This document shows, piece by piece, positions 1 through 45,021 of a stretch of DNA of 45,021 nucleotides. The first letter of the stretch is position 1, and the number at the start of each line of letters is the position of its first letter. The notes beneath the pieces are model-generated. The model saw nothing but the letters and a program-made list of their open reading frames with translations. It was not told where the DNA came from and did not search any database. Source of the DNA: a virus; the IMG/VR virus record IMGVR_UViG_3300028029_000003, positions 1 to 45,021 of that record. One strand, 5' to 3'. The translations under genes were made by a program, and so were the position numbers.

Positions 1-127
1 TAAGTTATGTACATCTTGATATTGAGTTTTGATAGTAGTTGACATATTATGTCTCCAGTTATTATAGTGACAGGAATTGTCACTACTTAGTTTGCTTCAA
101 AGAAGGCACTAACTAGTATCTTCTTTG
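1..127. repeat. Terminal identity, copy 1 (identical to 44895..45021). It includes a duplicate of the first 15 codons of the early gene that starts at 44939.
   Basis: Base-by-base comparison shows 1..127 equals 44895..45021 exactly. The flanking base on the inner side of each copy (128 and 44894) is a. nt 43..45 (cat) correspond to the ATG at 44937..44939. Confidence 0.95.
53..84 (-). promoter_or_regulatory. Candidate early promoter/operator for the gene starting at 44939 (equals nt 45): -10 TATAAT, RBS GGAG and a perfect palindrome.
   Basis: The minus strand reads CTAAGT AGTGACAATTCCTGTCAC TATAAT AACTGGAGACATAAT ATG. TATAAT is at 61..66 and GGAG at 53..56, 7 nt before the ATG. The perfect 7-5-7 palindrome AGTGACA-N5-TGTCACT (66..84) fills the spacer and abuts the -10. 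The -35 position (TAAGTA) is poor. Confidence 0.35.
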
Positions 128-25783: not shown

Positions 25784-25981
25784 GTAGCTCAGTCTCTGGG
25801 AGCGTTTTGCTCCTAGAACCTCTTTAGAGCACATACCATCTGTGTATGTAGAATAACCATACAACTGACACTCTTTGGTCCTTCTTTGGTTAGCTTGACC
25901 TTTGTAATACAAATCAATGATAGGCACAACAAGCAATGTAACTATCACAGTGTAAAAAGCAACTTCCAGCAGCCTAGACAC
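25763..25981 (-). CDS. Small membrane protein (72 aa), last gene of the minus block and a lysis-accessory candidate.
   Basis: GTG 25981 lies 6 nt after GAGG and overlaps the upstream stop. It has an N-terminal TM segment VAFYTVIVTLLVVPII, then KECQLYGYSTYTDGMC. The track start at 26011 overlaps the upstream gene by 38 nt. Confidence 0.4.
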   Translation of the reverse strand: MSRLLEVAFYTVIVTLLVVPIIDLYYKGQANQRRTKECQLYGYSTYTDGMCSKEVLGAKRSQRLSYLRRRFS

Positions 25982-26411
25982 TGATAACCTCAAGCTCAAC
26001 GCCATAATCATTTTTGATTATATTGTAAACTATACTTGCGTATATCTTCTTATAGACTGCAGTGGAGTGACTTATGCTTGCTCCTATACTAGCAGATTCA
26101 CCAACAAGTATACAACCTTCTGTGTCTCTTGGATAATTACCTATGTGTAGTAGGATGTACTTATAGTTTGGCACGTCTAGCACTTCTATCATGCCTTTGT
26201 GGTCAGCGAATTTAACTCCATACCTTTGATGGAAGCCACCAACTTTTCTGAGGCCTAGTTTGTAAGTGCCTTCAGGTATCCTAGTCTCACCAGGTATCTT
26301 GTGTGCATGCCAAGGGTCTTCTATAGTGTGGCACAGAATTTTGCCGTTGTGCATTAGCAAACCTTTAGTGTGCTTGCTGTCTGCAAAGTATCTTCTTAGT
26401 TCAAGTTTCAT
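25974..26411 (-). CDS. DUF5675-like protein with a YkuD-type H...GC motif, a putative cell-wall enzyme.
   Basis: 145 aa. TKGLLMHNGKILCHTIED...ETRIPEGTYKL...ILLHIGNYPRDTEGCILVGES matches the pattern I recall for DUF5675 and the His/Gly-Cys catalytic signature of L,D-transpeptidase-fold enzymes. Confidence 0.6.
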   Translation of the reverse strand: MKLELRRYFADSKHTKGLLMHNGKILCHTIEDPWHAHKIPGETRIPEGTYKLGLRKVGGFHQRYGVKFADHKGMIEVLDVPNYKYILLHIGNYPRDTEGCILVGESASIGASISHSTAVYKKIYASIVYNIIKNDYGVELEVISV

Positions 26412-26899
26412 AGTTCTACACTCCAGTCTTCAGCTAGCATGTCTGTCTGACTGCATAGCCAAGGTACAATCTGTCCATCAGCTGTCTTCATGTCAACGTG
26501 AGCATGGTAGTTAATCTCAGTGCCCTCAGGATATATGCCTAATAGAGGTACCCTGTTAACTTTAAATGTGGACCCACTAACTAAGAATAAGAACATACTT
26601 CTTCCATTCCAACCAGCTCGGTGAACCTTGTGACCTCTTTTAAGCATCAACAAAGCATCACCAAACGTCAACTGCCCATTAGGATTATAAGCTTCGTTGA
26701 ACACATCCTCAGGTGACCATGAAATGTAGCCATCGTGCTTAGGGTGATTAGACTTACCTCCGTCACAGTGCTCAACAAAGTAGCCTTCGTCTTCACCGTT
26801 CTCATCATCAGGCAGTTTCCATCCTCTGTACTCAATATACTCAGCTCTATTCATTACTTGAGCTACGATTAGCTTTGAACCTACGTGTAATTTATTCAT
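26408..26899 (-). CDS. Two-domain protein with a C-terminal DUF2829 (Tad2-like) domain.
   Basis: The C-terminal half LTFGDALLMLKRGHKVHRAGWNGRSMFLFL...DGQIVPWLCSQTDMLAEDWSVEL carries the DUF2829 hallmarks. The N-terminal ~75 aa (YRGWKLPDDENGEDEGYFVEH...GYISWSPEDVFNEAY) form a separate module. Confidence 0.75.
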   Translation of the reverse strand: MNKLHVGSKLIVAQVMNRAEYIEYRGWKLPDDENGEDEGYFVEHCDGGKSNHPKHDGYISWSPEDVFNEAYNPNGQLTFGDALLMLKRGHKVHRAGWNGRSMFLFLVSGSTFKVNRVPLLGIYPEGTEINYHAHVDMKTADGQIVPWLCSQTDMLAEDWSVEL

Positions 26900-29726: not shown

Positions 29727-30553
29727 AGCTTTATCTTCTGCACGGGAGGAGCAACGTCAATCTTGCCTTTAGAGAAAGGGCACTCTTTATAGAAGTCACA
29801 CCACTGGTCACCACAGAACGTGTAACCTGGATTGCCTCTAAGAATAGTCTCTATAGGAGCTACGTCCTTTATAACTAAGTCTAAGGTGTCCAGGATATGG
29901 TTCACTAACTTCTTAGCATGAGGTACATTAGCTTCCATACCAATAATAGAACCTTCAGGCACCTTCTTAAGCACTACACTTTGAATCAAGTTGTGCTTGA
30001 CATCAATACCATTAGCTTGAGCTAAGAACTTATAGATTGACTGCTGAGTTGAGTGTTTCTGAACAACAGGCTTGCGCTTAGAGGTTTTCAAATCAGCTAT
30101 AGTACTGTCAGTAATGTAATCAACAGTTCCACCAATAGAAGTAACTAATGCATGGTCTAAAGGAACTTCAAAGAATTCTTCTACAGCATTAGGTATCTTA
30201 GCGAACGGCACAATGTCCTCTATGAATGCTTCTGTACCTTGAAGAATAACTGCAGCAGATGTTCCGGCAGTTTCTTCTTTGCTGTACTTCATGTCCTTCT
30301 TAGCTTCTTCTGACCAAGCCTCCATCGCTGCATCAGTCATCATACTTAGGTTAGGTTCCTTCTTCTTGCTAGCTATAGTTTCAGTCCAAAAAGCTTCAGC
30401 AGCAGCATGAACAGCAGTTCCAATCGCAGCTCGGTTATTAGGTCTAGATTGCCGACCTTCCAAGAACGTAAGTCCCCATTGGTAAGAACAACCAAAGAAG
30501 CTGTCTATCGTAGAAGGTCTTAGTCGTATGTCAGTATTGTTAATTTTAATCAT
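29723..30553 (-). CDS. PD-(D/E)xK exonuclease (Cas4/RecB-like, Cys-cluster type).
   Basis: GGTVDYITDSTIADLKTSKR is a D...DLK core. An N-terminal Cys (FFGCSYQW) plus the C-terminal CGDQWCDFYKEC resemble Cas4/AddB-type Fe-S ligands. Confidence 0.75.
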   Translation of the reverse strand: MIKINNTDIRLRPSTIDSFFGCSYQWGLTFLEGRQSRPNNRAAIGTAVHAAAEAFWTETIASKKKEPNLSMMTDAAMEAWSEEAKKDMKYSKEETAGTSAAVILQGTEAFIEDIVPFAKIPNAVEEFFEVPLDHALVTSIGGTVDYITDSTIADLKTSKRKPVVQKHSTQQSIYKFLAQANGIDVKHNLIQSVVLKKVPEGSIIGMEANVPHAKKLVNHILDTLDLVIKDVAPIETILRGNPGYTFCGDQWCDFYKECPFSKGKIDVAPPVQKIKL

Positions 30554-31073
30554 TTTGTTCTCCAGCTAAATGTGTTGTATTGCTGTTCTCCAGAATCGGC
30601 CTGCATTGGATTATTTTCTTAGGCTTAGTTTCACATTCTGAGGACAAAATGTCTTCAAAATGAATCGTTCTGGAGCCCGACTCTAGCAATAAAGCTTGTC
30701 CAAGATGTTGTAAACCAGCCCAGGATGAGTTGTCGTCAATCTTAGGACAACACACAATTAGTATACCTGCCTGGACTATTGCTTTGCTACAGCCGATACA
30801 AGGAGGTTTAGTGACATACAAGGTAGAACCTGTCAAGTCTGCTCTGGCATTGAGGATAGCATTGAGTTCTGCATGGACCATCAGGTCATTCTTGCCTTCG
30901 CCATTGAGGCGCTCTTCAGTGTCTGCTATACCGATAGGAAAACCGTTATAGCCCATAGAGAATTGCCGTTTGTCTGGATACACTATCACACAACCAACTT
31001 TAGTCTCTGGGTCCTTGCTAAAGTCCGCCACAGCAGTAGCCAGTGCAATGAACCTTGCATGCCACTTGTTCAC
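30546..31073 (-). CDS. dCMP deaminase.
   Basis: The zinc-binding motifs HAELNAI and PCIGCSKAI (HAE / PCxxC) are at the spacing typical of deoxycytidylate deaminases. Confidence 0.85.
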   Translation of the reverse strand: MNKWHARFIALATAVADFSKDPETKVGCVIVYPDKRQFSMGYNGFPIGIADTEERLNGEGKNDLMVHAELNAILNARADLTGSTLYVTKPPCIGCSKAIVQAGILIVCCPKIDDNSSWAGLQHLGQALLLESGSRTIHFEDILSSECETKPKKIIQCRPILENSNTTHLAGEQND

Positions 31074-31342
31074 GACTCTATCCAGTCTTCTACTAATTTC
31101 GCGTAGCCCTGGATATCATGCCAGTTATCAGCATAGTTAGGGTCGCCATTAAGTATACGAGCTACCTTATGCTGAATCATCATAAGAGCTTCTTTCTGAA
31201 TAGGTTCAAGCTTACTGAACACTTCTTTGCCATTAGGTCGGCAATCTCTCATTACATCTTGTAAGTCTTGACTGATTACAGCGTGGTCTACAAACTTACC
31301 ATACCGCTTACCTCTTGATTTTAGTGTACTAGTGATAGACAT
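31070..31342 (-). CDS. Small helical protein, DUF6378/DUF1599-like (nucleotide-metabolism-associated).
   Basis: RGKRYGKF...EALMMIQHKVARILNGDPNYADNWHDIQGYAKL matches the R..YG...KxxR...D.W.D..GYA pattern of small helical phage proteins that I recall being linked to NTP-pyrophosphatase or base-modification genes. Confidence 0.45.
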   Translation of the reverse strand: MSITSTLKSRGKRYGKFVDHAVISQDLQDVMRDCRPNGKEVFSKLEPIQKEALMMIQHKVARILNGDPNYADNWHDIQGYAKLVEDWIES

Positions 31343-31899
31343 TCTGTTAATCCCTCTTTGCTTAAAATAATTAATAAATCTGTGTCTGCTTTCTTGTACG
31401 ACTCACCTTTGTCTAGGTTAGCCTTGATACCTGAAGCAGTCTTCTTTACGGCCTTACTATCGTTAGAATTACAGACGGCGTTTATGCAATCCGTAGTGCA
31501 CTCATCACTTAGGCCTATGTAACTCAGCTGAGCTAAACATAAGTATATAATAACGTGGCAAACATTCAGAGGCGACAAATGAGCGTCTTCCATCATGTCT
31601 AGCAACGAGCCTACATAATAAGCAGGTGCCAAGTTTGATAGCTGTAGTAGATTAGCCACGTATTGTCCACTATGGTCTGCCCAGGTTTGGTTATCTTCAT
31701 CACTTACATCAAGCTTCCAGATAACTCCCATCGCCACAAATATAATATCGCTTAGTTCTTTCACTTCATTGACTAAACCGTCCTTCGCAAGCCACTCAGC
31801 ATACTCTTCTCTGAGCAACTGCATAGCCAGGTCACGGTTGTACGTTTGTTCGTATCTGGCATTATTCCAGACAGAGACCCTTTTAAAAACTTCAAGCAT
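31321..31899 (-). CDS. All-alpha (MazG-like) nucleoside-triphosphate pyrophosphohydrolase.
   Basis: VWNNARYEQTYNRDLAMQLLREEYAEW...EVKELSDIIFVAMG gives the EExxE...E..D metal-binding pattern. The C-terminal NSNDSKAVKK...KG resembles MazG/dimeric-dUTPase-like phage enzymes. Confidence 0.6.
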   Translation of the reverse strand: MLEVFKRVSVWNNARYEQTYNRDLAMQLLREEYAEWLAKDGLVNEVKELSDIIFVAMGVIWKLDVSDEDNQTWADHSGQYVANLLQLSNLAPAYYVGSLLDMMEDAHLSPLNVCHVIIYLCLAQLSYIGLSDECTTDCINAVCNSNDSKAVKKTASGIKANLDKGESYKKADTDLLIILSKEGLTECLSLVH

Positions 31900-31902
31900 A
31901 TT

Positions 31903-32691
31903 TTACTCCTTAAGTAAAAATTTCATTACTGGTAGACTCTCATATTGCAGAGCAAACCATTCAGGCGTCATAACTTTAGACGATACGCCTTCAGGTATTA
32001 AGAGTTGATAACTTACTGGTGGCATGTCCTGGAAGGCGGATGACGTATACAAAGGTGCCCCTAGCCAGTGTTCTTCGTACACATGACAATCGCCTAGCTG
32101 CATTGTTATTTCTCCAGGGTCCAGTCCAACTTCATTAGCTAATACTATAAGCCAGGTAGCTGCCAGGACGAAGTCAGAAGGCAAGCCTATCATCATATCA
32201 ACTGAACGCTGAAGCCAGACCATACTTAGCTTACCTTCAGCAACACAGAATTGATAGCTATAGTGACAGCAAGGTAAACTAAGTTTGTCTAGTCTCTCTG
32301 GTCTCCAACCGTTGATTATCATTCGTCTGTCACTAGGGTCATTCTTTAGCTTGTCTATCAGTCGCTCGTACTGTCCATCTGCATGCCAGGCGTTACCGTA
32401 GTCAACTTCTAGGTCACCGTTGTCATCGGCCCACAACTTCCAGTAGTTGCACCCCCACTTCTCAAAATCTGCTAAGCATTTAGGACCACGAATAATCGCA
32501 GCGAACTCACCTAGTATTCCTTTATAGGACATCTTACGACCTTGAATCAATGGAAAGTTACCATCAGTCATGTCTATTTTAAGTTGCTGACCAAACAAGG
32601 ACTTTGTTGCACCATTCCTAGTTTGTTTAGCAGTTCCCATTAGCATTACATTGTTTATTAACTTCATGTAATCTTGCTCGTACTTTTGCAT
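31903..32691 (-). CDS. Thymidylate-synthase (ThyA) homologue with Asp at the uracil-specifying Asn position, a predicted dCMP methylase or hydroxymethylase.
   Basis: Start re-set to ATG 32691 (TAATG with the polymerase stop; MQKYEQDYMKLI compares with E. coli MKQYLELMQKVL). There is an ungapped match to E. coli ThyA across LKNDPSDRRMIINGWRP..LSLPCCHYSYQF...LQRSVDMMIGLPSDFVLA...LGDCHVYEEH. GLPFN(177) of E. coli is GLPSD here. Confidence 0.8.
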   Translation of the reverse strand: MQKYEQDYMKLINNVMLMGTAKQTRNGATKSLFGQQLKIDMTDGNFPLIQGRKMSYKGILGEFAAIIRGPKCLADFEKWGCNYWKLWADDNGDLEVDYGNAWHADGQYERLIDKLKNDPSDRRMIINGWRPERLDKLSLPCCHYSYQFCVAEGKLSMVWLQRSVDMMIGLPSDFVLAATWLIVLANEVGLDPGEITMQLGDCHVYEEHWLGAPLYTSSAFQDMPPVSYQLLIPEGVSSKVMTPEWFALQYESLPVMKFLLKE

Positions 32692-34343
32692 TACTGCTTT
32701 AACTCCCATATAAAGTCGCCATTCTCCATGTCACCCCAATTCTCTCCTACAAGAACGTTGACTGGCATAGGAAGGTCCTTGATTAAAAATAGCTTAGACA
32801 TCTCAGTCCAAGCCTCTTGCATAGAATCAGCAATGATAACCGCAACTCTCTTAGCTATTTCTAAGTCGTGATTATCTACCTTAACTATAAAACTATCGTG
32901 GATGAAGTTAACTAAGCAACAGCCACCTAAAGCAGTCAGCTTTGGCATCATGTAATGCAGTGCTAGCTTTGCTACTTCTGCTCCAGCACCTTGGTTTTGA
33001 ATGTTAAGTTGGTCAGTCATCATCTTGCCGACATATCTGCGGCCAAGAGGTGTAGTCCAAGGCTTACCTTTCTTCCAGGCGTTTATTCCTCGCTGCTGCC
33101 AGGTATAAATTTCATTCCACAAGCTTCTCCACTTCTTACGTAGTGAATAACCTTCGCGTTCTTCTAACCACAAAGAAGCTTGCAGTATAAGAATGCTAAT
33201 AAACACACCAACTCCACCACCATACAAGAAGTTAAAGTTAGCTGTCTTAGTCAATTGCCGTTGGGTCTTCGTCCACTCTTTGCCGAATATCATCTCAGTT
33301 GTAAAGTTGTGAATGTCAACTCCTTCTTTAAACATCTTGACCATTAAAGAGCAGTTTGTTATACAAGCTATAGTACGAAGCTCAAGTTGAGCATAATCAG
33401 CGTATACCATTAGTTCACCGCCGAAGCAGTCTTTTAACTTTCTAGGTATTTGTTGCTTATTCTCATCTTTAGAAACTAATCGGCCAGACCTTGCGTTAGG
33501 CATGAACTTACCTATGAGCTCTATCATGTTGTCGTACTTCTTTAAGAAGCTATTCTGCTTTATGAGCTTTCTAGTTTCATTGACATCCTTAGCTCTATCG
33601 TTACCTTTAAGAGTAGCCATAGCTAATCCTAACGCATCAGAGTGCTTAGAATCTATGTAAGGCCTGACTTGTTGCCAGCTGTTACAATTGACAGGTAGAG
33701 CAATCTCGGCTATCCTGGTATTATTTTCATTAAGATGAGTGGCGATTCGCTCATGGTCTATAGGCATGCCATTCCATTGAAAGTCTAAACAGTAGCCTAA
33801 GGTTAGCTTATCTAGCTTATAGCTCATGCTTTCTTCTTCATGCTTTATAAGCTTGTAGAGCTCAGGCATATGATAGACATCAGTGGCAGCGTACAGCAGC
33901 TGGTCAGTAGTTAGCCTGTCAGCTTTCCAGTTAGACTTTTGCAGCTTCGCTTTGTCTAAGCTTTGAGCTTTGTATGGGCAATGTCCTATAGTACGTTCCA
34001 GGGCTGCATCAAGACTGAACTTCTCAGCTCTATAATGGTGCAATCTATCTAGCAATAAGGTACACTCGTAGGCTGGTGGAATCCACCTAGTATCAGTTTG
34101 CTGTTGTAGAGTGGTTATTTCGTAGTGAACATTATGAGCAACGAATTTAAAGTTATTAAGAAGTGCACAGAGCAGTACAGGCTCTGGCCATTCTATCATC
34201 TGAACTTCATCGTTACCCTCTTGAAAGAACTGAGCTAATCTAATCCTCTGATAAAAACCGCATGTTTCTACATCAAAGAACAGCGGCTTATCATTGTCTA
34301 GGACTAGCTCACTGAAAGTTACTAGCTTATATGGAGTACTCAT
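32691..34343 (-). CDS. Family-A DNA polymerase with a 3'-5' exonuclease domain.
   Basis: Start re-set to ATG 34343 (ATGA overlap). ExoI is FFDVETCG, motif A VYADYAQLELR, motif B RQLTKTANFNFLYGG and motif C FIHDSFIV. Confidence 0.9.
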   Translation of the reverse strand: MSTPYKLVTFSELVLDNDKPLFFDVETCGFYQRIRLAQFFQEGNDEVQMIEWPEPVLLCALLNNFKFVAHNVHYEITTLQQQTDTRWIPPAYECTLLLDRLHHYRAEKFSLDAALERTIGHCPYKAQSLDKAKLQKSNWKADRLTTDQLLYAATDVYHMPELYKLIKHEEESMSYKLDKLTLGYCLDFQWNGMPIDHERIATHLNENNTRIAEIALPVNCNSWQQVRPYIDSKHSDALGLAMATLKGNDRAKDVNETRKLIKQNSFLKKYDNMIELIGKFMPNARSGRLVSKDENKQQIPRKLKDCFGGELMVYADYAQLELRTIACITNCSLMVKMFKEGVDIHNFTTEMIFGKEWTKTQRQLTKTANFNFLYGGGVGVFISILILQASLWLEEREGYSLRKKWRSLWNEIYTWQQRGINAWKKGKPWTTPLGRRYVGKMMTDQLNIQNQGAGAEVAKLALHYMMPKLTALGGCCLVNFIHDSFIVKVDNHDLEIAKRVAVIIADSMQEAWTEMSKLFLIKDLPMPVNVLVGENWGDMENGDFIWELKQ

Positions 34344-34558
34344 AAGGCTATGTAGCCACGAGGATAGTACTTCATGGAAGGTTCGTACCAATGCTTTTCA
34401 GGGTACTCAAAGCAAAACTTAGGTCCGAACAGCTCAAAAGCCAGGTTTCTACCTTCTTCCTGCGAGTTACTCTCTAGAACTACCACGCAGTCTTTGTCAA
34501 TGGTCTTGCCATCGATTGTACGAGTATGGTCTTGCCCAAAAGTGATGTAAGTTTTCAT
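34340..34558 (-). CDS. Hypothetical protein (72 aa).
   Basis: It is coupled to the polymerase gene. The pattern ITFGQDH...FELFGPKFCFEY recalls a small conserved phage family of unknown function. Confidence 0.6.
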   Translation of the reverse strand: MKTYITFGQDHTRTIDGKTIDKDCVVVLESNSQEEGRNLAFELFGPKFCFEYPEKHWYEPSMKYYPRGYIAL

Positions 34559-38727: not shown

Positions 38728-39027
38728 TTATTTCTCTACTTCATTCGGTGTGTACCATTGTGGCATTTTGTTCAATTTAACTTGTACAGCCAAATCCAAT
38801 TCAGCTTGTTTCATAACTCCATTGGCTTTTAATATTTCAATAAGGGCTAATATGTCACCTAGCTCTTGAACTAAGCAATTTATATTCGCCTGTTGATCCT
38901 TAGGATGATAGTGGCGCACACCAAACCTAATTATCTTAGATTTTATTTTGATTACTTCTGCACATTCCTCAGCTAAAATTTCTAGGTTTAAAAATACATC
39001 CGGGAACTGCTTATCTAAATCGTTCAT
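38728..39027 (-). CDS. Small MazG-like nucleotide pyrophosphohydrolase (99 aa).
   Basis: LAEECAEV (EExxE) and QELGDILA (E..D) are at the spacing typical of ~100-aa MazG-like phage proteins. GGAG lies 8 nt upstream, after a 69-nt intergenic gap. Confidence 0.65.
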   Translation of the reverse strand: MNDLDKQFPDVFLNLEILAEECAEVIKIKSKIIRFGVRHYHPKDQQANINCLVQELGDILALIEILKANGVMKQAELDLAVQVKLNKMPQWYTPNEVEK

Positions 39028-43409: not shown

Positions 43410-43886
43410 CTAGCTATTAGCTAAACATTCATCAAGAGTTTCAAATCCTTGATAGTCACCTTCCAATGGAGTGATGACCTGGCGAAGAGTATTAAGCTCT
43501 TCTAAAGCTGATGGTACATCTTCAGCAAGTAAGTCGCCGCTTGCAACAGCTTCTAACAAGCTTTCTTTACCTTGCTTGTATGCTCGTTGTTGCTTAGTCC
43601 ATTTAGAGACACCTTCTTTACACATACTGTTTAAGCCAGTAGCACTGGATGCTTTCTTACCGAACTCAACAACACTCGGGTCCATCCAAGTTTTGTGGTA
43701 GAAGCAGTGAATCGCAGTGACGTTGCCATCTTCATCACGGTGATGAGCAGTTGCTTTACCACCTCCACCACCAGTCTTAGCACTCGCAAGAGCGATAGCT
43801 TGTACGAGGATGTTGCAGACTTGTTCATCTGGATTTGCTTCCAAAAGGGAGATGATTGGTTGGTATGCTTTTTTAATCGTGGCCAT
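43410..43886 (-). CDS. Early protein, paralogue A (158 aa, unknown family).
   Basis: It shares the core CxYHKxW...(Y/F)GKKAS..TGLN.MCK.GVS.WTKQQR...K..LL..VASG with the 44487..44939 product. It has its own promoter-like elements and terminator. Confidence 0.7.
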   Translation of the reverse strand: MATIKKAYQPIISLLEANPDEQVCNILVQAIALASAKTGGGGGKATAHHRDEDGNVTAIHCFYHKTWMDPSVVEFGKKASSATGLNSMCKEGVSKWTKQQRAYKQGKESLLEAVASGDLLAEDVPSALEELNTLRQVITPLEGDYQGFETLDECLANS

Positions 43887-44486: not shown

Positions 44487-44939
44487 TTATGCTTCGACTT
44501 CTTCAGTCTCAACAACAGTTACTTCATAAGGCTTGATTTGTTTAGCTTGCTCATCAATCAATGCAATGCTATTCGCTAGCTCACTTGCTTCGACTTCACC
44601 ACTAGCAACATCATCAAGTAACTTAGCTTTTGCTAACTTCATTACTCTTTGTTGTTTAGTCCAGTTTGAAACACCTTGCTTACACATTGTATTCAAACCA
44701 GTACTTGTACTAGCTTTCTTGCCATAGTCAATCTCAGATATATTTTCCCATTCTTTATGATAATAGCAATACACATGAGTGACAATGCCTTCATCATCTT
44801 TCTTGAAAGTCTTAGCCATAACTTTAGATTGCATTAGTTCAACAAACTGGTCCATTAGCTTAGTAGTAAGCTTCTTACCAGCATTGTCTTGTAATAAGTT
44901 ATGTACATCTTGATATTGAGTTTTGATAGTAGTTGACAT
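44487..44939 (-). CDS. Early protein, paralogue B (150 aa, unknown family).
   Basis: It is a paralogue of the 43410..43886 product, with an acidic C-terminus. Its promoter/operator region lies across the circular junction (window nt 46-90). Confidence 0.7.
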   Translation of the reverse strand: MSTTIKTQYQDVHNLLQDNAGKKLTTKLMDQFVELMQSKVMAKTFKKDDEGIVTHVYCYYHKEWENISEIDYGKKASTSTGLNTMCKQGVSNWTKQQRVMKLAKAKLLDDVASGEVEASELANSIALIDEQAKQIKPYEVTVVETEEVEA

Positions 44940-45021
44940 ATTATGTCTCCAGTTATTATAGTGACAGGAATTGTCACTACTTAGTTTGCTTCAAAGAAGG
45001 CACTAACTAGTATCTTCTTTG
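44895..45021. repeat. Terminal identity, copy 2 (identical to 1..127).
   Basis: Exact 127-nt match to the window start. The unique genome length is therefore 44,894 bp. Confidence 0.95.

Follow-up and report, generated by a model that had tools for sequence, protein, structure and literature searches.

The virus record IMGVR_UViG_3300028029_000003 of IMG/VR was analysed over its full length of 45,021 nucleotides (nt), which is called the window below. Its minus strand carries a cassette in which a homologue of thymidylate synthase (TS; ThyA in E. coli) lies downstream of a family A DNA polymerase (PolA) and is followed by a nucleotide pyrophosphohydrolase, a DUF6378 protein and a zinc deaminase (Table 1). 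The synthase has Asp where E. coli ThyA has Asn177, the position at which the pyrimidine is recognised, and is predicted to methylate deoxycytidine monophosphate (dCMP) at C5. The synthase, its neighbours and the cytosine replacement to which they probably contribute are described here.

Table 1. Genes and codons of the cassette and further MazG-like genes of the window (aa, amino acids; NTP, nucleoside triphosphate; E, expectation value)
Feature	Position	Strand	Evidence
dCMP/dCTP-deaminase-family zinc deaminase, 175 aa, HAE...PCxxC	30546..31073	-	PF00383, E 2.9e-19
DUF6378 small helical protein, 90 aa, function unknown	31070..31342	-	PF19905, E 1.6e-7
192-aa all-alpha NTP pyrophosphohydrolase of the PRA-PH/MazG superfamily, candidate dCTPase/dUTPase	31321..31899	-	phrog_671, family motif, fold
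ThyA-fold enzyme with Asp in place of Asn177, predicted dCMP C5-methyltransferase	31903..32709	-	PF00303, PDB alignments, AlphaFold2 model
Asp codon where the pyrimidine is recognised (E. coli Asn177; T4 gp42 Asp179)	32173..32175	-	translation GLPSDFVLA
Catalytic Cys codon (E. coli Cys146; second Cys of LPCCH)	32266..32268	-	
Family A DNA polymerase with 3'-5' exonuclease, adjoins the synthase upstream	32691..34391	-	PF00476, PF01612
Truncated MazG-like paralogue, 50 aa	38203..38355	-	BLASTP 63% identity over 43 aa, E 1e-16
Small MazG-like NTP pyrophosphohydrolase, 99 aa, EExxE and ExxD motifs	38728..39027	-	phrog_4856, E 5.1e-18

Identity and fold of the synthase

The longest open reading frame (ORF) of the synthase encodes 268 aa. 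The ATG at 32691, which gives 262 aa, is the likelier start because it overlaps the polA stop codon as TAATG and has a GGGAG about 11 nt upstream. The protein matched the Pfam family Thymidylat_synt (PF00303) with an E of 1.3e-53 and was aligned by HMMER to solved ThyA structures with E values of ~1e-38. Its overall identity to E. coli ThyA is ~32%. The AlphaFold2 (AF2) model, made with 57 homologues in the alignment, reached a predicted local distance difference test score (pLDDT) of 95 and was superposed by Foldseek on E. coli ThyA over 265 columns with a template modelling score (TM) of ~0.9 and a root-mean-square deviation (rmsd) of 1.6-1.7 Å. The 50 best structural matches were classical thymidylate synthases without exception. 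The catalytic Cys146 and the phosphate-binding Arg21/126/127/166 are present together with Glu58, Tyr94, Asp169, His207 and Tyr209, and all of them are invariant in the 120 homologues introduced below. An earlier note on this DNA had quoted the motifs LPCCH, DRRMIING, QRS-D, VDYGNAW, GDCHVYEEH and GLPSD, each of which was found in the translation, QRS-D as QRSVD. Its statement that the protein aligns without gaps to E. coli ThyA was overstated, as a few indels occur away from the active site, e.g. ~8 residues fewer after Trp-His.

Of the NCBIfam models, NF002497, NF002499, NF002496, NF010393, NF002495 and NF002498 were matched below their cut-offs (e.g. 154.9 vs 327), and TIGR03284 'thymidylate synthase' was matched above its cut-off (127.9 vs 108.35 bits). 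All relatives of the synthase are annotated as TS.

Asp177 and its conservation

In the HMMER alignment to the solved ThyA structures, 'qrsvdmmiglpsd' pairs without a gap with 'qrsadiflgvpfn' and Asp falls on E. coli Asn177. The substitution claimed in the earlier note was therefore borne out by profile hidden Markov model alignment. Asn177 is characteristic of canonical ThyA (EC 2.1.1.45), and the enzyme of the window differs from it in this respect. The T4 dCMP hydroxymethylase gp42 has Asp179 in the same column, as had also been stated, and the enzymes of Xp12 and PaMx74, two phages with 5-methylcytosine (5mC), have Asp there too.

Two sets of relatives were compared, namely the 120 best matches from 5.8 billion clustered proteins (49-71% identity) and 80 related synthase loci from IMG/VR, numbered with the prefix L. 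Asp177 was present in 120/120 of the former and in 79/80 of the latter. It also occurs in the cultured phages KF-1, VPMS1 and Kolga and in an uncultured Manatee Spring phage. This conservation indicates selection for Asp and not a chance change. The sole member of the clade with Asn177 (GLPSN) is L081:4992-5804 (IMGVR_UViG_3300037247_000787), whose locus is without PRA-PH pyrophosphatase and without deaminase; this isolated case agrees with a joint occurrence of Asp177 and the accessory genes.

The mutants E. coli ThyA N177D and L. casei TS N229D, in which Asn is replaced by Asp, switch TS to dCMP methylation (cited in PMC8670742). They resemble the enzyme of the window in having a ThyA active site with this key change. 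In contrast to these engineered proteins, the latter is natural and fixed in a large viral clade.

Residues around C5 and the predicted product

Twelve residues of E. coli ThyA lie within 6 Å of C5; they were listed together with the residue rules of the field (NAR 2026, PMC13326640). According to these rules, N177D leads to dCMP as substrate, methyl products correlate with a bulky hydrophobic side chain at 143 and hydroxymethyl products with Asp or Glu there, and D169N marks flavin-dependent 5-hydroxy-dCMP synthases (PMC13326640). Nine of the twelve residues are the same in the enzyme of the window as in E. coli ThyA, and the only changes are N177D, A142S and C168V. The window enzyme and the 120 homologues have W80, Y94, L143, C146, H147, Q165, S167, D169, G173 and D177. 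Across the clade, the shell departs from ThyA only at N177D, A142S/D and C168V/A. W83 and the C-terminal tail are also retained, and L143, W80 and W83 are invariant.

The features connected with hydride transfer and water exclusion in dCMP methylases (hydrophobic 143, Trp80 and the C-terminal tail) are thus all present. The acidic residue 143 and shortened C-terminus of T4-type hydroxymethylases were not found; the enzyme has L143 and the segment aligned to E. coli 258-264. D169 is invariant in the 120 homologues, so that the enzyme lacks the D169N mark and is not regarded as a 5-hydroxy-dCMP synthase. On these residues the enzyme resembles a naturally occurring N177D variant of ThyA, for which 5-methyl-dCMP (5mdCMP) and dihydrofolate are the expected products. 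The earlier note had left open whether a methyl or a hydroxymethyl group is transferred; the published markers L143, Trp80/83, His147, Gln165 and the C-terminal tail favour methyl.

Pyrophosphatases

The protein encoded directly downstream of the synthase matched PHROG phrog_671 'nucleotide pyrophosphohydrolase' with an E of 1.7e-10. It gave no match to Pfam itself, and a word-indexed protein search recovered only the protein itself. An exhaustive HMMER search yielded 284 representative relatives. The family alignment has the invariant residues E31, E32, E35 and D51 (EExxE...D), and 62 of 77 members match PF01503 PRA-PH. Identity to VPMS1 MS_035, which is annotated NTP-PPase_DR2231_like, is 37%. 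The AF2 model is all-helical with a pLDDT of 95. Its best Foldseek matches were dimeric dUTPases of staphylococcal phages and of Campylobacter/Trypanosoma, with a probability of 0.98 but an E of ~0.3. PDB sequence and profile searches gave nothing meaningful. Both the metal-binding motif and the helical fold of all-alpha NTP pyrophosphohydrolases were thus found in the 192-aa protein.

The second small MazG-like gene noticed earlier at 38728 proved real by its match to a PHROG family. Its 50-aa paralogue has a 4-residue deletion that removes the metal-binding segment EECA and is probably a non-functional, decaying duplicate of the gene at 38728..39027.

Deaminase, DUF6378 protein and census of related loci

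The best PDB match of the deaminase was 7fh4, the bifunctional dCMP/dCTP deaminase of PBCV-1 (E 4.6e-17), and its identity to the Xp12 deaminase is 34% (E 5e-26). It combines a dCMP_cyt_deam_1 fold and the HAE/PCxxC motifs with a location in cis with an Asp177 TS, which are the features of the 5mC-selective cytidine nucleotide deaminases termed mSCD. The neighbours listed in the earlier note, i.e. a MazG-like pyrophosphatase, a DUF6378 protein and a dCMP deaminase, were thereby confirmed through the phrog_671/PF01503 family, PF19905 and PF00383, respectively. The published combination of Asp177 TS, PRA-PH and dCMP deaminase beside PolA within ~3 kb is found at 30546..34391.

A census covered the 72 related IMG/VR loci in which the synthase is followed by 2.5 kb or more of sequence. 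A PRA-PH-type pyrophosphatase of either of two families was near the synthase in 56/72 loci and a deaminase in 49/72. At least one of the two was present in 66 loci and both were present in 39 of the 72. The position of PolA upstream of the synthase is conserved in related loci. In KF-1, gp27 (L006:4844-5452) is a deaminase fused to a C-terminal helical domain, and VPMS1 has in the same slot a 176-aa protein, MS_034 (L007:4875-5405), with a DUF6378-like C-terminus and without deaminase. Synthase and pyrophosphatase therefore form the core of a modular cassette.

A gene that has a GxxxxGKD P-loop and resembles deoxynucleoside monophosphate (dNMP) kinases occurs in seven of the 80 related loci, five of them among the 72 of the census. 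The copy in L045 matches phrog_139 'deoxynucleoside monophosphate kinase' with an E of 2.7e-10. A comparison of the family with T4 gp1 by hhalign gave a probability of 34%, and the family was therefore assigned by phrog_139 and the P-loop. The gene lies directly after the synthase in L045:5795-6424 and L058:5807-6328. In L012:6368-6850, L016:6373-6900 and L064:6368-6862 it lies between pyrophosphatase and deaminase, which is the slot of DUF6378 in the window. The addition of such a gene to the cassette fits a modified dNMP that is bound for the triphosphate pool. No homologue of this gene of the sister phages was found in the window. Because of the kinase slot in these three loci and the lack of a recognisable kinase in the window, DUF6378 may be the missing component, either as a kinase substitute without P-loop or as a factor that retargets a host kinase to 5mdCMP. 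This is a speculative assignment to which we attach a low probability.

A ~120-aa family (MKVG..LLS...G.LP.RP..DK) was observed right after the Asp177 synthase in L028:5797-6153 and ten other loci. It was compared with dihydrofolate reductase (DHFR), whose presence would speak for a methyl transfer that yields dihydrofolate; hhalign to E. coli FolA gave a probability of 0.1%, and the PDB profile search returned 3 DHFRs among 5 weak hits with E values of 0.2-2. The family may be a divergent DHFR-like protein and was not used as support.

Absent functions were looked for with Pfam and PHROG in the called ORFs of the complete genome, covering all but a few ORFs of less than ~90 aa. No glycosyltransferase, carbamoyltransferase, dioxygenase, DNA methyltransferase or second synthase was found in these scans, which also upheld the earlier statement that no dNMP kinase, glycosyltransferase or canonical TS was seen.

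Genome context

Positions 1..127 are identical to 44895..45021 and this terminal overlap of 127 nt indicates a complete genome, with either a circular assembly of ~44.9 kb or terminal redundancy. The window was therefore taken as a complete genome. The plus strand carries a structural block with major head, portal and internal virion proteins and lysis genes. The minus strand carries a block for replication and nucleotide metabolism with primase-polymerase, Dda-type helicase, gp2.5-like single-stranded DNA-binding protein, PolA, ligase, SNF2-like ATPase and PD-(D/E)XK nuclease. When the region was compared by megablast with 50,697 phage records, no match was returned; the phage is novel at the nucleotide level, and the annotation was therefore drawn from protein comparisons. 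By protein similarity, the cultured phages closest to it are Edwardsiella phage KF-1 (Kafunavirus), Pseudoalteromonas phage PH1, Vibrio phage VPMS1 and Dickeya phage Amaethon; the pelagiphage Kolga of Pelagibacter is a more distant one. The phage of the window is a KF-1-like podophage.

The genome is AT-rich with a guanine-cytosine (GC) content of ~42%. GATC occurs at 5 sites compared with ~94 expected (z ~ -9; maximal-order Markov model, 44,894 nt without the terminal overlap), and no other palindrome of 4 or 6 bp comes near this depletion. The scarcity suggests a Dam-positive or GATC-restricting host and represents selection against a C-containing site that is still operating. Palindrome statistics, taken as a proxy for modification, did not clearly separate C/G-containing from AT-only palindromes. 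Over the whole window, CpG is depleted with an odds ratio of 0.58, TpG/CpA are mildly in excess (1.14) and CC/GG stand at 0.78. These biases may be linked to cytosine methylation or be mere composition.

Some further genes were recorded. A 163-aa protein at 26408..26899 (-) has a Tad2-like domain (Thoeris anti-defence 2; PF11195, E 6e-23) and is a possible anti-Thoeris sponge. A DUF5675 protein (PF18925, E 1.3e-28) is encoded at 25974..26411 (-), where the lysis and replication blocks meet. Two paralogous early genes at 43410..43886 (-) and 44487..44939 (-) both match phrog_10459 of unknown function, with E values of 5e-65 and 5e-46.

Comparison with known systems

In the MetaGPA study, metavirome DNA was selected for modified cytosine and PF00303 was the most associated domain (eLife 2021, PMC8670742). 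Positions 177 and 147 were the most discriminating, with Asp177 on modified and Asn177 on unmodified contigs, and PRA-PH, dCMP deaminase, MafB19 deaminase and ligase were co-occurring domains (PMC8670742). In later work, 70% of the deaminases on modified contigs were within 3 kb of a TS homologue, and Thymidylat_synt, MafB19-deam, PRA-PH, DNA_pol_A and DNA_pol_A_exo1 headed the list of co-localised domains (bioRxiv 10.1101/2024.12.05.627091). Five of seven cassette synthases made 5mdCMP in E. coli (bioRxiv 10.1101/2024.12.05.627091). The linked deaminases preferred 5-methyl-dCTP (5mdCTP); the synthase-linked mSCD-B5 converted 5mdCTP to dTTP and was not active on dCMP. It was proposed that such phages exchange C for 5mC and obtain dTTP by deamination of 5mdCTP, as Xp12 does (bioRxiv 10.1101/2024.12.05.627091).

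At the level of domains, the cassette of the window resembles the MetaGPA contigs in its set of Pfam domains, in its tight neighbourhood and in Asp at 177. The modification-associated DNA ligase domains PF14743/PF01068 are also present in the window, and 7fh4 is the closest solved structure both for mSCD-B5 and for the deaminase of the window. DUF6378, in contrast, is part of the cassette here and is unmentioned in these papers.

In Xp12 (Xanthomonas) and PaMx74 (Pseudomonas), C is fully replaced by 5mC, and a cluster of pyrophosphohydrolase/hydrolase, thyA homologue, dCMP deaminase and DHFR is present. An Asp177 synthase beside a deaminase and a nucleotide hydrolase is common to these phages and the window. 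Their pyrophosphatase is not detectably related to the 192-aa protein, and BLASTP of the latter against the PaMx74 pyrophosphohydrolase gave no match. Both are siphoviruses, whereas the phage of the window is a podophage. No dNMP kinase is annotated in the inspected parts of their records.

T4, with gp42, gp56, gp1 and Cd, has a comparable logic, as dCTP is excluded, dCMP is modified by a TS fold bearing Asp and a deaminase feeds thymidine synthesis. However, gp42 is only 21% identical to the synthase of the window and has D143, V83, T147, M165 and a short C-terminus, and the glucosyltransferases and dNMP kinase of T4 have no recognised counterpart in the window. The 5-hydroxy-dCMP synthases RB69 gp48 and DLP3 gp80 (PMC13326640) share the TS fold and Asp177. 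Their D169N and L143E are not found in the window, nor is a cluster of arabinosyl or glycosyl transferases.

Discussion

The cassette is best read as a pre-replicative pathway of cytosine replacement of the 5mC type, in which a dCMP methylase leads to 5mC DNA, and we consider this reading probable. The proposal of the earlier note, a cytosine-type TS within a cassette for the deoxynucleoside triphosphate (dNTP) pool and DNA that may carry 5-modified cytosine, thus gained support from sequence, structure prediction, conservation in the clade and the published cassette. In the proposed pathway, host dCTP would first be hydrolysed to dCMP, and the canonical precursor thereby depleted, by the PRA-PH/MazG-type enzyme of 192 aa and perhaps also by the 99-aa MazG-like protein. 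The synthase, which should bind dCMP rather than dUMP because Asp replaces Asn177, would then transfer the methylene group of 5,10-methylene-tetrahydrofolate together with a hydride to C5 in the manner of ThyA, giving 5mdCMP and dihydrofolate. Host kinases or an unrecognised phage factor would raise 5mdCMP to 5mdCTP, which the phage PolA would insert instead of dCTP; PolA must accept the modified dNTP for this. Finally, the deaminase would turn part of the 5-methyl-dC nucleotide pool into thymidine nucleotides, and with this supply the phage would need no canonical TS. We infer all enzyme activities and the composition of the phage DNA in this scheme; the identities of the genes, the residue pattern and its conservation were observed.

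The deaminase is a candidate 5-methyl-dC nucleotide deaminase that would supply dTTP or dTMP. It is probably more than a supplier of dUMP, as in published cassettes 5mdCTP is turned into dTTP, and such an activity would explain that no canonical TS is present. The preference of deaminases for the 5-methyl group is polyphyletic and follows no sequence rule (bioRxiv 10.1101/2024.12.05.627091).

Several points weigh against the replacement of C by 5mC. The synthases of Xp12 and PaMx74 are only 24-25% identical to that of the window, which is below the 32% for E. coli ThyA. Their signature is P147/L165/F83 with N or V at 143, compared with H147/Q165/W83/L143 in the window, and the synthase does not fall into their sequence clade. 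The functional assignment rests therefore on residue rules and not on orthology. The L143 rule itself is only a correlation; Xp12 has N or V there according to the alignment used. No dNMP kinase and no DHFR was recognised in the window by Pfam and PHROG, whereas Xp12 and PaMx74 encode a DHFR. Two of the seven cassette synthases gave no 5mdCMP in E. coli, and T4 gp1 was added in these assays for incorporation (bioRxiv 10.1101/2024.12.05.627091). The specificity of the 192-aa and 99-aa pyrophosphatases for dCTP is a candidate assignment, and hhalign of the pyrophosphatase family against the T4 dCTPase gp56 gave a probability of 2%. In a literature search, no paper on DNA modification in KF-1, VPMS1, PH1 or Amaethon was found.

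Instead of modifying DNA, the cassette could serve as a mere bypass to thymidylate, in which dCMP is converted via 5mdCMP to dTMP or dTTP. The packaged DNA would then be canonical or slightly methylated, and the pyrophosphatases would clean the pool, e.g. of 5mdCTP or dUTP. In favour of this, no canonical TS and no dNMP kinase were recognised in a complete genome, which is AT-rich. Deamination of 5mdCTP has been proposed as a source of dTTP (bioRxiv 10.1101/2024.12.05.627091), and the frequency of deaminases beside the synthase in the census agrees with it. We nevertheless consider it rather unlikely. The gene combination is enriched on contigs that were selected for modified C in the DNA itself (PMC8670742; bioRxiv 10.1101/2024.12.05.627091). 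Furthermore, 23/72 loci, among them those of the cultured VPMS1 and Kolga, have the Asp-type synthase and no detectable deaminase nearby, so that the product has a use without deamination. A two-enzyme detour would also bring no clear gain over an Asn-type TS.

The product of the synthase could also be 5-hydroxymethyl-dCMP as in T4, or another C5 adduct, and the DNA would then contain undecorated 5-hydroxymethylcytosine. Asp177 is common to the synthase and gp42, the L143 rule is correlative, and a hydroxymethylase would need no DHFR, in line with the lack of a recognised one. One relative is annotated 'pyrimidine hmase', which is merely the name of a conserved domain. Yet the enzyme shares L143, W83, H147, Q165 and a complete C-terminal tail with ThyA and differs in all of these from gp42, the top 50 structural matches were all classical TS, and no transferase that would use the hydroxyl group was found in the Pfam and PHROG scans. 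The active synthases from such cassettes made 5mdCMP when tested (bioRxiv 10.1101/2024.12.05.627091), and a hydroxymethyl product is accordingly given little weight.

Similarly doubtful is an ordinary supply of thymidylate, with the synthase acting on dUMP despite Asp177 and the DNA being canonical. The three activities would form a coherent route from dCTP via dCMP and dUMP to dTMP, all catalytic residues of ThyA besides N177 are intact, the TIGR03284 cut-off is passed and the relatives bear the TS label. It is difficult to reconcile with this that Asp177 is fixed in relatives of ~45-70% identity in both homologue sets, that the published Asn-to-Asp mutagenesis reverses the pyrimidine preference and that Asp177 goes with modified and Asn177 with unmodified contigs (both PMC8670742, the former as cited there). 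The only Asn177 member of the clade has neither pyrophosphatase nor deaminase, and the synthase of the window scores far under five of six ThyA equivalog cut-offs. Hypermodification of glycosyl, carbamoyl or TET type was rejected, as such genes were not found by Pfam and PHROG in the scanned ORFs of the complete genome.

For the replacement of C by 5mC, the diagnostic residue and the neighbourhood of N177D synthase, PRA-PH, deaminase and PolA are already published as a marker of cytosine modification, and the window extends it. Modestly new are the near-minimal ThyA-like active site, which is distinct from the Xp12 type, the inclusion of cultured phages whose enzymes are labelled TS, and the occurrence of DUF6378 in the kinase slot. 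The low identity and the residue pattern suggest that the ThyA-like Asp177 clade acquired its cytosine specificity separately from the Xp12 type, and it may be an independent origin of dCMP methylases.

If the proposed pathway is true, C would be replaced by 5mC in this phage and in its many relatives among aquatic and enterobacterial podophages, and widespread aquatic podophages including KF-1, VPMS1, PH1, Amaethon and Kolga would carry 5mC DNA that has gone unreported. Their susceptibility to restriction enzymes and methylation-dependent nucleases would be altered, and analyses of viromes by bisulfite, enzymatic methyl sequencing (EM-seq) or nanopore would be biased. The label 'thymidylate synthase', which all of these genes now bear, would then conceal the biology. 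The clade is also a source of near-minimal N177D ThyA enzymes and linked deaminases, which are of interest as reagents for methylome sequencing.

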